Notes: generated by a model not told the origin, from the letters alone. Shown: positions 49,109-53,472, numbered from the stretch's first letter. The stretch is 64,000 nt of DNA from Minisyncoccota bacterium (GCA_031972855.1 DALYDY010000001.1:26765-90764); one strand, 5' to 3'. Numbers and translations: made by a program.

Positions 49109-49165
49109 TTTAAAGAACAATTCATTTTCAAAATTCGAACGTAATTCAAATTCTGAAAAATGTGG
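49109..49165. repeat. 57-bp perfect direct repeat, copy 1
   Basis: TTTAAAGAACAATTCATTTTCAAAATTCGAACGTAATTCAAATTCTGAAAAATGTGG, identical to 53416-53472. Confidence 0.9.
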
Positions 49166-49174
49166 GCGATTTTA

Positions 49175-49333
49175 TTATTCGGATCGCCCGTTTTCCTTTT
49201 TCTTCCTAGAGTAAGTTTTTTTACTCTTAAAAGTCTTTTCGGACTTAATTCCGCGGAAGATTTCGCGAGATTCTCTACGACCCTTATTCACATGGTCGAT
49301 TTTAATAACGATCTTCATATCTCTTTTTGCCAT
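49175..49333 (-). CDS. Small basic protein (52 aa)
   Basis: MAKRDMKIVIKIDHVNKGRRESREIFRG..; found by manual translation; conserved promoter-like box upstream. Confidence 0.3.
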   Translation of the reverse strand: MAKRDMKIVIKIDHVNKGRRESREIFRGIKSEKTFKSKKTYSRKKKENGRSE

Positions 49334-49453
49334 CTTGTTTTTATTTTATTGTTTCACAAAATATTTATTTTCTCAACAGAACCTCGAAACAGTATTCGAA
49401 ACCCTGATAAAGAAAAGGAGGTGGAGGACCTCCTTTTGTAAAATAGGTACTAT

Positions 49454-49603
49454 TTACCTTATTTTACTGAATTTAATTTCATCTAGCCGATTAGTGGCTT
49501 GAGTAAATTTATAATTCTTTTTTTGTTCTGGTTTTGGTTTTGGCAAATTAATTTTACCAACAATTTTTAAGCCAGGTAAAACTTTAGTATTTATATTTTC
49601 CAT
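49454..49603 (-). CDS. Small protein (49 aa)
   Basis: MENINTKVLPGLKIVGKINLPKPKPEQ..; conserved promoter-like box (AAATAGTGATTTGAAAGT) about 45 bp upstream. Confidence 0.3.
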   Translation of the reverse strand: MENINTKVLPGLKIVGKINLPKPKPEQKKNYKFTQATNRLDEIKFSKIR

Positions 49604-49814
49604 TTTATATTTATTTTTATTTACAGAACAATCCTACTTTCAAATCACTATTTGGAATACTTATAGCAAGCAAATACTGATTTGAAAAATGGAGGGGAAC
49701 TCGTGCTCCCCTATTTTTTGATTTATTTGTTTTCAAGATGTTTACTCATCTTAACCAGCGATTTCACTTACTTCCTTCAGTGAGTATCTTGTTTGGATTT
49801 TTCCACGAAATAAG

Positions 49815-50054
49815 CTAACTAGGATAAAAATTACTAATTTTATTTTCCAATTTGTTACTGTAACGATGTTTTATTGTTAGACGAATTTTCATCTCTAATA
49901 TTCTTACTGGCAAACACCTATAACATGAACAATCTTGTAAGTAATCCCTATCATCATAATCATCTTCGTACATCCATTCACTTTCGTATATGTATGCATC
50001 TTTGATTATTTTAGCTACTTTTTCTAGTTCCTGGTTTCTTTCATACTTTTTCAT
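49815..50054 (-). CDS. Small hypothetical protein
   Basis: Start set at MKKYERNQ (the ORF-track start at 50096 is a TTG); conserved upstream box. Confidence 0.4.
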   Translation of the reverse strand: MKKYERNQELEKVAKIIKDAYIYESEWMYEDDYDDRDYLQDCSCYRCLPVRILEMKIRLTIKHRYSNKLENKISNFYPS

Positions 50055-50227
50055 GTTTGTGAATTTAGTCTTGCAACTACACCCACAATGAATCAAATTT
50101 CTTTTTCATGTTTTATTTAATTGTTTTAAGAACTCTTCACTATCAAACCACTATTTTAAAATAATAATCTGAACAATGAAGGAAAGATTTTTAAATCTTT
50201 CCTTTCTAATATTGAGTATTAGTACTC

Positions 50228-50611: not shown

Positions 50612-50721
50612 AATATTTTTTTATTTTGTTTAATAAAAAAAATAAAAATATTTATGAAGATATTTTAAAGAACATTTATCTCTATCAATTTCCAAAAAAT
50701 TTTAGAAACTGAATAAAGAGG

Positions 50722-51160
50722 GAAAGTATTAATCAATTTGAAAAATACTTTCCCATTGCCGGATTTACGGCTGTTGAATTTGCTCGGGTAACGGAAACAT
50801 AAATTACATTTCCGTAAACCCAAGCGCTCATCACTTTACGTAGTAACCTCGGTCCGCAGTCCTCTTCAAAAATTCCCGCTCGGAACTTCTAAGTCGATGG
50901 ACAAAAATTGAACAAGGTCCCTGTCGAGCAACAGGTGTGGACATGGGCTCCACAATTTGAGACCGCAAACATAAAGTTTGTGATCTCAAAAATGGAGGCG
51001 AACAGGTGTTCGCCAGAATATAGAGAGGATAAAATCACTTTTCTCCCGGGCCAGTGTTTTGGATAACACTGGGCCAGGATCTTCTGTTGCCAATCGGTTA
51101 CTCTTGCTATCGAGTAATGTGAGACCGATCCGAATCGTCGTGTGTGCCTTTCGACTCAAA
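50722..51160 (-). ncRNA. GC-rich structured non-coding segment directly 3' of rsr; candidate Rsr-associated (Y-RNA-like) RNA
   Basis: No ORF; local GC well above the surroundings; several perfect hairpins (GGCCCAGTGTTATCCAAAACACTGGGCC, GAGATCACAAACTTTATGTTTGCGGTCTC, ACGGAAA..TTTCCGT); contains one copy of an about 80-nt module duplicated at 53.3 kb. Confidence 0.45.
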
Positions 51161-51163
51161 GCT

Positions 51164-52774
51164 CTAAAGCTCTATCTTTTCGATTTCACCAATCTGACTT
51201 ACGCCAGACGATAATTTCAATCCAATATAGTTCAAAACTTTGTCACTCCATCCGTAGATAAAATGAACACCTTCCTCGCCTGTTGGAGCGACAGCTTCAC
51301 GAGTTGGTACAATAGTAACCAAGAATGCTTGAGCATCAGGATTAATCTCTTTTTTGTAGCGGCGCCACAAAGAAAGAAAAGAATCTGATGTCGAGTATCC
51401 TTCGCCATATGCCCAGTCCTCGTTGTCAGTGATACCAATAAAAACATCTGTCTTAATCTCGTGATTAAGCAAATATTGTATTGGCGCACCAACTGCTGTG
51501 GAACCGCCGCGAACCGATGCAATCTTTTTAGCTGTTTCAGCAACGCTGTCGAGCTTAGAGAGTGCAAGGTGGTTCACAATGTGTCCCTCGAAAGGTAGAG
51601 CCAATGCTCTTTCGGTGCGTTTTAAGAGTGCTCCGGTAAAAATTCCAGCGATATCAATGCACTTAGTCGTACTCTTTTCAGAAATACTATAACTAGACAT
51701 TGAACTGCTGACATCTGTACCAATCGTCACGTGCATCTCGGAACCGAAGTTCGGAAGATTAACAAATGATAATTCGAGCCCCTGACGTATCGCATCAAGC
51801 AAACGCATATCCAATGCATCAGTTGATTGGTACGCCTTCAACGCATCAAAAAAACGGAAAGGTAACACACGACTTGCCTCGACCGCACGAGGATCAGTCA
51901 GCTTACGTACAGCAAACTCCACATTCTCTACTTCATCGAATACACCGTTCTCTTTAAAAGAGTTCAGTGCACGAAGCAGATTCATGTAAGGAGCTTGATG
52001 CAAGAGTTCTGTCCAAACACCCTTGGTCATTTTCGGAACTGTCGGCACTACTACTTCGTAAGGAAGGCTTCCCTGTTTTACCAAGGAAACAATCTCTTCT
52101 TCAGTTGTTGCGCGTTTCAGTTTTTCAAATGCCAGGATCTTTGGATTTAACTCGGAAGCGTTTCCGAGTGAGCCCTTCGTAAGCCAGCCGAATCTTTCGT
52201 TCACGACACCTGAAGATGGTTTCGGATGAGTGAGGCGAATGATGTCTCGGAGCGTTATGTCTTTCGACCGCACCGAACCGTACTTGATGGCGTGATATTC
52301 AGAAATACCACCAATCCATTCACGTACTGCATCACGCACCACACCACCGAGTCCAGATCTTCCAGGGATTACTCCCTCTTTGATGAGTGAAACGAATGTG
52401 CGGAGATCATCCGGTGTCAGAATAGTTTTCTGAAATGTATTCTTAAAAAGCGTACTTCCCAATCCTCTCTTTCCAGAAAGAATAGCAAGAGCTAGTATCG
52501 GAACTAATTTCATCAAACCTTTTTGACGTGCCCAAACAATCGCTTGAGCAAGGAACCGGTGATCTTTCTCACGCATCTCTAGGATTACCGCTATGGTTTC
52601 TTGAGCAAGTTGCTCTTTCTTCACATAGAATGTATCGCTAAGAGTATTCGTGGTGAGGACCTGAAGGAGTTGTTCCTTCTGAGATCTTCTGAAAGACGGC
52701 GCACCTTCGTGATTGAAGTGTGGAGCCGCTTGTGGTTTCAGTGCCATTTTGATTGTTTGGATTTGGTTTTGCAT
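51164..52774 (-). CDS. rsr: Ro60-like ribonucleoprotein Rsr (TROVE domain + vWA domain)
   Basis: 536 aa; long helical-repeat N-terminal region typical of TROVE; C-terminal vWA with MIDAS DxSxS (..TDVSSSMSS..); GC clearly higher than flanking genes. Confidence 0.7.
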   Translation of the reverse strand: MQNQIQTIKMALKPQAAPHFNHEGAPSFRRSQKEQLLQVLTTNTLSDTFYVKKEQLAQETIAVILEMREKDHRFLAQAIVWARQKGLMKLVPILALAILSGKRGLGSTLFKNTFQKTILTPDDLRTFVSLIKEGVIPGRSGLGGVVRDAVREWIGGISEYHAIKYGSVRSKDITLRDIIRLTHPKPSSGVVNERFGWLTKGSLGNASELNPKILAFEKLKRATTEEEIVSLVKQGSLPYEVVVPTVPKMTKGVWTELLHQAPYMNLLRALNSFKENGVFDEVENVEFAVRKLTDPRAVEASRVLPFRFFDALKAYQSTDALDMRLLDAIRQGLELSFVNLPNFGSEMHVTIGTDVSSSMSSYSISEKSTTKCIDIAGIFTGALLKRTERALALPFEGHIVNHLALSKLDSVAETAKKIASVRGGSTAVGAPIQYLLNHEIKTDVFIGITDNEDWAYGEGYSTSDSFLSLWRRYKKEINPDAQAFLVTIVPTREAVAPTGEEGVHFIYGWSDKVLNYIGLKLSSGVSQIGEIEKIEL

Positions 52775-53039
52775 AGGTTGTAATATTATTTAGTGGAAAA
52801 AAATGACCGCAATCATTTTTTTCCACCAAACAAAAAACCTATTTTTTCCTCTATATATATTTACAAAGAACTTTTTCACTATCAATCCACTATTTGACTT
52901 AGCTCACGATAAGCCAAATTAAATAATGAACTGAACAATGAGGGGAATTTTGCCCAGAACTTGCTGATCTCACTGATCAGAAGTTCCGGACATTCCCCAA
53001 TTGATTTCTATGCTGTGGTACCCAGCTATAGTTCGAGAC

Positions 53040-53415
53040 AAAAAATGTGCGCACATTCTTTGTATCCAAGCCACCTTGAACAGTCTGTACAGTTACAGCA
53101 ACCACAATTGGGTGCTGTCTGGCAGACCAGATTAAGGTATCAAATCAGGCTTGAGTCTCATTGCACAAGAAATGTGCACGAGGGACCAACGTTAGCTTTC
53201 ACGTTTCCGCAAGACTTCAGATCCGCATGTCCACCATCAATGATGGCGGACACGACATAACATGAAGATTGTGATAAACATTTTTTATTTCATAGTATCC
53301 TCGTCTTACAGTCCTCTTCAGATCCTTCGCCAAAAAGATCTAAGTCACAGGACAAAAAACAAACAAGGCTTAACCCTACCAGGCGCGCAGGGTGCGCGGA
53401 AAACGTGAAAATATT
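53040..53415 (-). ncRNA. GC-rich structured non-coding transcript candidate upstream of rsr
   Basis: ORF-free. Begins just downstream (minus sense) of the 57-bp repeat copy and ends at an intrinsic terminator AATGTGCGCACATT+T6 (about 53041-53062). Carries the second copy of the about 80-nt module. Confidence 0.45.
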
Positions 53416-53472
53416 TTTAAAGAACAATTCATTTTCAAAATTCGAACGTAATTCAAATTCTGAAAAATGTGG
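53416..53472. repeat. 57-bp perfect direct repeat, copy 2
   Basis: Identical to 49109-49165; the two copies bracket about 4.3 kb containing rsr. Confidence 0.9.

Follow-up and report, generated by a model that had tools for sequence, protein, structure and literature searches.

The window analysed here, a 64,000-nt stretch of DNA from a Minisyncoccota bacterium, comes from an uncultured, AT-rich bacterium of the candidate phyla radiation (CPR), of the Paceibacteria/Nomurabacteria type, as it encodes RNase Y, ClpP, HU and four tRNAs and because relatives of its RNase Y are found in metagenome-assembled genomes so labelled. Between the RNase Y gene (rny, 47093-48619) and gene K/hup it contains a variable island with a TrmB-type regulator gene, the Ro60-related gene rsr, four structured noncoding RNA (ncRNA) candidates and seven small ORFan genes. 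Two identical copies of a 57-nt sequence, which reads CCACATTTTTCAGAATTTGAATTACGTTCGAATTTTGAAAATGAATTGTTCTTTAAA on the minus strand, were found in this island at 49109-49165 (copy 1) and 53416-53472 (copy 2). These 57-mers are probably (about 0.6) paralogous copies of a junction module that would serve as the transcribed punctuation of one long operon, separating every cassette of the island, be it a small gene, rsr or an ncRNA.

The identity of the two copies and the differing bases that immediately follow them had been reported in the original prediction and were confirmed. The neighbouring bases differ on either side of both copies, so that 57 nt is the maximal exact length, and the sequence occurs exactly twice in the window. 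A search with the 57-mer pattern at up to three mismatches returned the same two matches and none in 100 dinucleotide-preserving shuffles. Weaker homology continues for 38 nt more (49166-49203 and 53473-53510), with 84% agreement over 95 nt, and this extension holds a GC-rich hairpin that differs by copy (GGGCGA..TCGCCC in copy 1 and GGATGA..TCATCC in copy 2). As had also been proposed, a transcription unit comes after each copy on the minus strand, namely the structured, GC-rich ncRNA2 (z = -6.1) after copy 2 and the gene at 48673-49080 after copy 1.

Independent assemblies of the same species either read through the repeat or break k-1 = 30 nt inside it (L001 and L206, which are contigs of GCA_031972175.1; L002, a Logan contig; L209, L210, L213 and L214; loci other than the window are given L numbers throughout). 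Contigs end 30 nt into the repeat, or at the repeat, because a true 57-bp repeat branches the assembly graph. The repeat is genuine and not an assembly artefact.

Architecture and folding of the junction modules

From 49.1 to 54.2 kb, all ten intergenic gaps of the minus strand can be aligned and are built alike, giving about ten modules in a region that had been described as otherwise repeat-poor, and no such modules were found in the window beyond the island (Table 1). On the sense (minus) strand the module order is a first hairpin (hp1), a second hairpin (hp2), a spacer of usually 3-6 nt and the boxA-like GUUCUUUAAA. The first hairpin is GC-rich and its sequence varies between modules. The second abuts it without a gap, is AU-rich, 18-30 bp long and conserved at its base, and has the general form (U)CAUUnU, bulged U, CAG...loop...YUG, AnAGUGA, with module I having an hp2 of 12 bp that includes 4 G·U pairs. 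The motif after the spacer is GUUC(U/C/A)UU, which is followed by an A/C-rich stretch. The 57-mer is composed of the last 2 nt of hp1, the complete 40-nt hp2, AAUU and GUUCUUUAAA.

The hp1-hp2 pair belongs to the upstream cassette as its 3' element, and the GUUCUUU motif to the downstream cassette as its 5' element, because modules at array ends drop GTTCTTT and because the motif can stand without hp1-hp2. The array-end modules at 14426 in L024 and 8701 in L220 keep hp1-hp2, lack GTTCTTT and run directly into a canonical terminator, the module at 11422 in L216 likewise lacks GTTCTTT, and in L024 one ATTGTTCTTTAA is located 19 nt ahead of a start codon with no hp1-hp2 before it. The 57-mer therefore straddles one cassette boundary. 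The boxA-like motif was observed ahead of ncRNA cassettes (copy 2 in the window, M1 in L009 and 5818 in L220) as well as open reading frames (ORFs), which argues that GUUCUUU acts at the transcription or RNA level rather than in translation.

The hp1 stems of copies 1 and 2 differ by two compensatory pair changes, and hp1 of module C is orthologous to the hp1 that follows the gene-B homologues in L024 (GGAUGA) and L009 (GGACGA). The Lys/Arg-rich ORF I, of 52 amino acids (aa), extends into hp1 of module J (window 49175-49189, minus strand). An hp2 apex of the form UGAAG(C/U/A)AAUUC, a GNRA-type tetraloop on an A-U-rich stem, is conserved in many relatives (4700-4758 and 5150-5208 in L009, 7921-7978 in L218, 5254-5309 in L220), and the window twins have a UAC loop instead.

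When read on the sense strand, each of the 21 distinct hp2 variants gives a perfect hairpin, and the set contains 289 pairs, including 58 G·U. On the antisense strand the same variants form 143 pairs with 2 G·U, and many remain at 0 kcal/mol with no fold. When 14 basal pairs were compared across 18 distinct modules, 93.3% of the cells were paired, as against 35-50% with the partners slid by 1-3 columns. Compensatory changes on both sides were found in 10 of the 14 basal pairs and the covariation score was reached by none of 500 shuffles, although the apical seven columns were extracted through their predicted partner and are biased towards the structure, the basal seven being taken at fixed offsets. 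The hp2 of module A occurs in several strain forms (CAGAAUUC/GAAUUCUG in the window, CAGAACCUCCAUUCG/CGAAUGGAGGUUCUG in L205 and CAGAAUUUUCAUUCG/UGAAUGGAGGUUCUG in L209), and every C-to-U change between the L205 and L209 forms is absorbed as a G·U pair. The conserved flanks of hp2 pair with each other, namely CAUUnUU, which was at first taken for a terminator U-tract, with TTGATAGTGA, which was at first taken for a -35 element. Since the compensatory and G·U changes preserve hp2 only as a sense-strand structure, it must be transcribed.

A palindromic operator for a TrmB-type regulator was considered for hp2 and rejected, as the half-sites are not at a constant distance (loops of 3-5 nt and more) and all mismatches are G·U pairs on one strand only. 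This one-strand bias and the variable loop lengths speak against any palindromic protein operator.

The covariance model R1 was searched over 1.25 Mb comprising the window, 80 CPR loci and L205. It found nine modules in the window (49105, 49349, 49616, 50120, 50660, 52858, 53412, 53759 and 54109) and, outside it, the corresponding island of strain L205 and seven further sites (L009 and L024 with three each, L003 with one), with nothing else in the 1.25 Mb. In L216, L218/L219 and L220, which were reached through Rsr homologues of 71-76% identity, R1 found 4-6 modules per array, each of them in sense orientation. Within the window, an nhmmer profile built from the module 3' half matched only island modules, together with sites in L009 and, weakly, L003. 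The Rfam covariance models at gathering thresholds returned only tRNAs from the window, and nothing relevant from 48600-54400 at E <= 10. A 21-base module pattern gave no match in a viral collection, a 16-base pattern returned noise only, and a BLAST search of the island against 50,697 phage records found no similarity. The modules are a previously undescribed RNA family that is supported by covariation and has no Rfam match. This family is of more interest than the repeat itself, as it is conserved across several genus-level lineages of Paceibacteria. The modules mark all cassette boundaries of an Rsr/ncRNA island and coincide with the breakpoints of its strain-to-strain turnover. Operon punctuation, antitermination and RNA processing are little known in CPR bacteria, and the locus provides a defined, testable case.

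Table 1. Positions of the repeat copies, module elements, genes and transcription signals in the window
Feature	Position	Strand	Support
Copy 1 of the 57-mer, junction module J, between genes I and J	49109..49165	-	covariance-model match 49105-49163, 75.6 bits
Copy 2 of the 57-mer, junction module C, between gene B and ncRNA2	53416..53472	-	covariance-model match 53412-53470, 73.1 bits
hp2 of copy 1, CAUUUU-U-CAGAAUUUGAAU-UAC-GUUCGAAUUUUG-AAAAUG; 40 nt, 18 bp, one bulged U	49123..49162	-	ViennaRNA folds, covariation
hp2 of copy 2, identical in sequence to hp2 of copy 1	53430..53469	-	folds, covariation
boxA-like 5' element of cassette J, GUUCUUUAAAU; 10/11 to GYTCTTTAANA	49108..49118	-	consensus PMC5725501
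boxA-like 5' element of ncRNA2 cassette, GUUCUUUAAAA; 11/11 to GYTCTTTAANA	53415..53425	-	consensus PMC5725501
hp1 of module J, GGGCGA..UCGCCC, gene I stop codon in loop	49164..49189	-	
hp1 of module C, GGAUGA..UCAUCC	53471..53496	-	
Module A (hp2 and GTTCTTT), upstream of 54-aa gene A	54109..54189	-	covariance-model match 50.2 bits
Module B, upstream of 53-aa gene B	53759..53816	-	covariance-model match 68.6 bits
Module D, upstream of rsr, hp2 of ~30 bp	52858..52941	-	covariance-model match 61 bits; fold
Module E, degenerate (hp1 and hp2, no GTTCTTT), inside the ncRNA downstream of rsr	50949..51014	-	repeat D8
Module F, upstream of 127-aa gene F	50660..50719	-	covariance-model match 63.3 bits
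Module G, upstream of 79-aa gene G	50120..50179	-	covariance-model match 60.4 bits
Module H, upstream of 49-aa gene H	49616..49692	-	covariance-model match 58.2 bits
Module I, variant without clear GTTCTTT, upstream of 52-aa gene I	49349..49413	-	covariance-model match 27.9 bits, E = 0.23
Near-consensus sigma-70 promoter TTGACA-17-(TGc)TATACT, proposed single array promoter	54780->54752	-	11/12 with TG, best match in 48-55.5 kb
Canonical bidirectional intrinsic terminator closing the array, shared with RNase Y	48629..48650	-	
Whole variable island between rny and gene K/hup, ~7.6 kb	48620..56215	-	absent from L003
rsr, Ro60-related, TROVE and vWA domains	51164..52774	-	
ncRNA2, structured RNA candidate that copy 2 leads into	53000..53405	-	minimum free energy z -6.09, no Rfam match
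Gene J, follows copy 1	48673..49080	-	
TrmB-type regulator gene	55412..56170		

Identity of the two copies and cassette turnover

Copy 2 is identical in all seven strain contigs that span it completely, and it is orthologous across genera, with modules of the same subtype occurring after the gene-B homologue in L009, L216 and L218. The gene-B homologue is always followed by a module of this 'AAAAUGA' subtype. Sister strains have both copies at the same places, with copy 1 differing from copy 2 by 2-5 changes. The hp2 loop of copy 1 is TTACG in the window and L001, as in copy 2, TAAC in L205 and L207, and CAT with one extra T further on in L204. Contig break points indicate the identical form in SRR25018348, SRR6410602 and SRR4000971 and the L205 form in SRR12762274.

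The hp1 sequences of the two copies differ at ~40% of positions, with compensatory changes in the stem, and this divergence is about the same as that between hp1 orthologues of different genera. The adjacent 57 nt show zero differences, and this sharp contrast argues for a recent homogenisation of hp2 and the 5' element. The 'AAAAUGA' module pairs of other genomes (L009, L218 and L216) are clearly diverged, with a similarity judged by eye at roughly 60-70%. A recent gene conversion or junction swap between two ancient 'AAAAUGA' paralogues, in the species or just before it, is the most likely cause of the perfect identity. The copies had been attributed to site-specific recombination or a very recent duplication; relatives instead show diverged copies, and the repeat belongs to a larger family, the two observations that the original prediction had named as counting against it. 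Near-identical module pairs were also found elsewhere, at 9900-9957/14111-14168 in L205 and at 5818-5886/6644-6701 in L220 (~40 nt with one mismatch, 41 nt in L220), which suggests a recurrent homogenisation or duplication of junction modules with the 57-mer pair as the extreme case of a general tendency. The pair in L220 brackets a stretch just upstream of rsr which is possibly an ncRNA. Taken alone, the repeat is ordinary, consisting of two paralogous regulatory junctions whose identity is probably maintained through recombination.

Strain-to-strain differences in cassette content were observed at several positions. L203 lacks the 390-bp gene-A cassette, and its junction is the 9-bp GTTCTTTTA common to modules A and B. 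A 114-aa cassette is found in place of gene G in L205, L207 and L214, and genes F and G are replaced by another, GC-rich gene in L204. Upstream of the replacements in L205 and L204, identity is lost between the hp2 3' strand (GATAGTGA) and GTTCTTT, and in L205 it also resumes between these two elements at the downstream breakpoint. Cassette swaps between strains thus break at module junctions. Cassettes are also reordered over longer times, as the gene-B homologue precedes rsr in the window (upstream) but follows it in L216 and L218 (downstream).

It may tentatively be proposed, although we regard this as rather doubtful, that the array is a promoterless platform for gene and ncRNA cassettes, lacking an integrase and following an integron-like logic with punctuation at the RNA level, in which the junction is both an expression signal and a preferred recombination point. 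If so, CPR bacteria could gain, lose and reorder Rsr-associated ncRNAs and ORFan genes, and through the identical 57-mers the 4.3-kb block ncRNA2-rsr-ncRNA1-F-G-H-I could be released as a circle with a single junction.

Transcription of the array and competing explanations

Only one near-consensus promoter that would drive the array strand was found in 48-55.5 kb, namely TTGACA-17-(TGc)TATACT, and the arrays of L009 and L024 begin with an equivalent promoter, TTGACA-17-TATACT/TATAGT. Overall, promoter-like matches in the region are no commoner than in shuffles (25 found, 23 expected). We infer that the array, ~6 kb on the same strand, is one long polycistronic transcript running from this promoter (54780->54752) to the terminator at 48650-48629, a reading favoured by the sole near-consensus promoter, the terminator at the end, the shuffle-level frequency of promoter matches and the sense-strand conservation of hp2. 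Two near-consensus promoters were observed back to back within 54752-54943, just downstream of the TrmB-type regulator gene, with the same layout in L009 and L024. The plus-strand member, TTGACA-17-TAAGAT (54915->54943), was assigned to a plus-strand ncRNA candidate.

The 5' element GUUCUUU resembles boxA in sequence. The motif of the relatives is GUUCUUUCACAC or GUUCAUUCACAU, and the former was compared with the boxA of the E. coli rrn operons, GCUCUUUAACAA. In rrn the order is a hairpin (boxB) followed by boxA, and the module order is alike. Motifs were scored against the consensus GYTCTTTAANA derived by Baniulyte et al. (PMC5725501). All 11 positions agree in copy 2 (GUUCUUUAAAA) and in module F, and 10 of 11 in copy 1 (GUUCUUUAAAU), the other modules having 1-3 deviations. 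BoxA has been shown to protect long untranslated transcripts from Rho in CRISPR arrays (PMC7665894). The modules share several features with Nus antitermination systems (rrn boxB-boxA, lambda nut, CRISPR and suhB boxA; PMC5725501, PMC7665894), as GUUCUUUAAAA fits, is located just 3' of a hairpin and also lies on the sense strand before untranslated RNAs on which Rho would be able to act, the same argument having been made for CRISPR arrays. They differ in that the motif occurs at every junction and not once after the promoter, and in that the hairpin of 18-30 bp is far longer than boxB. NusA, the only Nus factor seen in the window, is encoded at 38470-39807. A literature string search for the Firmicutes-type boxA GTTCTTTGAAAA was uninformative. 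If the boxA assignment is true, GUUCUUUAA(C)A is expected in the organism's own 16S leader and 16S-23S spacer.

As the sequence is read here, two kinds of module function may be considered, either processing and stabilisation combined with Nus-type read-through, or a terminator combined with a promoter. Under the first, which we prefer, the modules would be transcribed within one polycistronic RNA, hp1-hp2 would be a structure that stabilises 3' ends or is processed by an endonuclease, with an hp2 helix of about the length of an RNase III substrate, and reloading of Nus factors at the boxA-like motif would let RNA polymerase continue into the next, often untranslated, cassette. RNase III acts on intercistronic hairpins in the T7 early operon and in rRNA operons, where each gap of the polycistronic transcript has a helix of ~18-20 bp. 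By analogy, the module has a helix of ~18-20 bp beside a stable hairpin that would protect the upstream 3' end. We know of no RNase III counterpart of the conserved CAG/YUG and bulged U of hp2.

Several observations weigh against this punctuation model. In several modules hp1 and a U-rich stretch are terminator-like, and most window modules offer a hexamer of the A2/T6 type (AACAAT, AAATAT) at a distance of 17 nt from TTGAnA, so that internal promoters are possible. The agreement with boxA is confined to a short, AT-rich motif, which is GTTCTGT in module H and also deviates in modules A and I, and no boxA-like motif was found after the proposed main promoter. No rRNA gene, whose leader would show the organism's own boxA, was found in the window or in any of the loci compared. 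Both the single operon and the RNA processing are assumed or inferred from sequence. As for the identity of the copies, a local divergence of 5% predicts ~2.7 differences per 57 nt, as against the 2-5 seen, and such numbers do not distinguish statistically between conversion in the window lineage and ancestral identity plus drift in the other strains.

The strongest alternative, possible but clearly less probable, is that the modules are terminator/promoter cassettes like the promoter-early stem-loops (PeSLs) of T4-type phages (Arbiol et al. 2010, PMC2839356; Comeau et al. 2014, PMC4122927). Here hp1 and its U-tract would terminate transcription and a sigma-70-type promoter, with a -35 TTGAnA, a 17-nt spacer containing GTTCTTT and an AT-rich -10, would restart it for each cassette, the 57-mers being a duplicated promoter. 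Both systems have small, conserved composite regulatory motifs that include a stem-loop and occur in nearly every gap of a hyperplastic, ORFan-rich region, in both the indels and replacements of close relatives break at these motifs, and in both near-identical tandem copies could loop out the intervening DNA; PeSLs likewise flank ORFans. The hp1 of modules H, B and E pass a terminator scan, a promoter scan flags TTGAAA-17-AATATT at copy 2 and TTGATA-17-AACAAT at module B, and the structured GC-rich part of ncRNA2 starts ~15 nt after the putative -10.

The modules nevertheless differ from PeSLs in lying in a CPR chromosome (flanked by RNase Y, ClpP, HU, tRNAs and NusA) and not in a T4-like phage, in having two abutting hairpins of which the second occupies the would-be -35 and is conserved as sense RNA, in the boxA-like motif that follows, and in the absence of a conserved, convincing N17 sigma-70 promoter. 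In some modules hp1 is terminator-like; the -35-like hexamer forms the 3' arm of the covarying hp2, and the relatives do not conserve the -10, those richer in GC having no TAnnnT at the correct spacing. Copy 1 has no hexamer that passes the scan, the promoter-like matches occur at shuffle frequency, and the distance from TTGAnA to GTTCTT is mostly 13-14 nt with a range of 12-16 and is much longer in module A. A sigma-70 reading of TTGATA/TTGAAA, our first interpretation, was downgraded since the hexamer is the hp2 3' strand and since terminal modules keep it with no gene downstream. The suggestion in the original prediction of a duplicated promoter or leader survives only as a leader or junction sequence, its TTGAAT..AATGAA hexamers being arms of the conserved RNA hairpin.

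It is improbable that the 57-mers or modules are att- or attC-like recombination sites and ncRNA2-rsr-ncRNA1-F-G-H-I a mobile unit. Strand-specific folding is, to be sure, also shown by single-stranded DNA sites such as attC, and the 57-bp perfect direct repeat would permit excision of a 4.3-kb circle. The island also shares with integron attC arrays one upstream promoter, small ORFan cassettes of the same orientation whose content varies by strain, a structured repeat of ~60-130 nt folding on one strand at the end of each cassette, and junctions at a GTT-containing core, and the 390-bp indel is bounded by GTTCTTTTA. It differs in lacking intI, in a core of GTTCTTT and not GTTRRRY, in having no inverse core (RYYYAAC) to pair with GTTCTTT, in two perfect hairpins in place of one imperfect hairpin with extrahelical bases, and in some cassettes being ncRNAs. 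An attC-like fold in which GTTCTTT pairs with an upstream inverse core was rejected, as it lacks conservation and appears in only some of the minimum free energy (MFE) folds, those of modules B, G and J. No integrase, transposase or other recombinase domain was found among the neighbouring ORFs of at least 150 aa in 36-64 kb that had no earlier identification (Pfam) or among the island proteins (Pfam, PHROGs and PADLOC), and no deletion allele (gene B-57mer-gene J) was present in ~12 strain contigs.

The empty site of L003 does not match the 57-mers either. This locus is 90-95% identical to the window in both flanks and joins window position 48619 (the RNase Y stop) to ~56215, before the terminator and gene at 56225-56577. 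The missing block (~48620-56215) is larger than the rsr/ncRNA interval, its edges are not at the 57-mers, which sit 0.5 kb and 2.7 kb inside it, and the family has ~10 members and not two, all of which runs counter to the proposal that the copies are att-like boundaries. Nor is rsr a recent acquisition, as had been suggested, since three further relatives, at the level of other genera, have Rsr homologues of 71-76% identity within the same TrmB...rsr...RNase Y array, which indicates that it was inherited in the array and not newly inserted.

Finally, the reading of the repeat as a functionless recent segmental duplication, of which a 57-bp perfect identity would be expected, or as a chance match or assembly artefact, appears effectively refuted by the comparative data, because zero chance matches are expected, the repeat occurs in several independent assemblies, both loci are ancient with paralogous 'AAAAUGA' modules in L009, L216 and L218, and the sequence carries a covarying structure.

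The rsr island and its RNA candidates

L216, L218/L219 and L220 share one conserved gene order, HU ... TrmB-type regulator ... ncRNA ... rsr ... small genes ... convergent RNase Y ... ClpP, which indicates that rsr is old in the clade, that L003 lost the island and that the arrays of L009 and L024 are without rsr. L003, in which 11528-11620 is the empty site, carries one module of the family ~3 kb away between two unrelated genes (L003 6898-6953). An apparent gap inside rny in L001 proved to be just masked N.

Four GC-richer structured noncoding stretches surround rsr, at 53000-53405 (minus strand, MFE z = -6.1), 50755-51163 (minus strand, -7.6), 54262-54745 (minus strand, -5.7) and 54950-55350 (plus strand, -5.3). 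None of the four matched Rfam, including its Y RNA models. The second half of the RNA downstream of rsr and ncRNA2 have a common paralogous core, CCUUGUU..UUUUGUCC..GACUUAGA-hairpin-UGAAGAGGACUG..GAGG (repeats D10 and D13). The locus supplies four structured ncRNA candidates beside a Ro60 orthologue, and these may be Y-RNA-like partners of Rsr.

Proteins A, F, G, H, I and J had no Pfam, PHROG or PADLOC match, a homologue search with the 53-aa protein B returned its own cluster only, and an exact look-up of the 150-aa form of protein J found none on record. A perfect 25-bp hairpin (repeat I19) was observed at 54573-54628 on the minus strand, inside the first ncRNA candidate of the array. A noncoding tail of ~100 nt extends from the gene G stop to hp1 of module H (49715-49815, minus strand) and is kept in L204 despite an entirely different upstream gene; it may be a small RNA or a cassette remnant.

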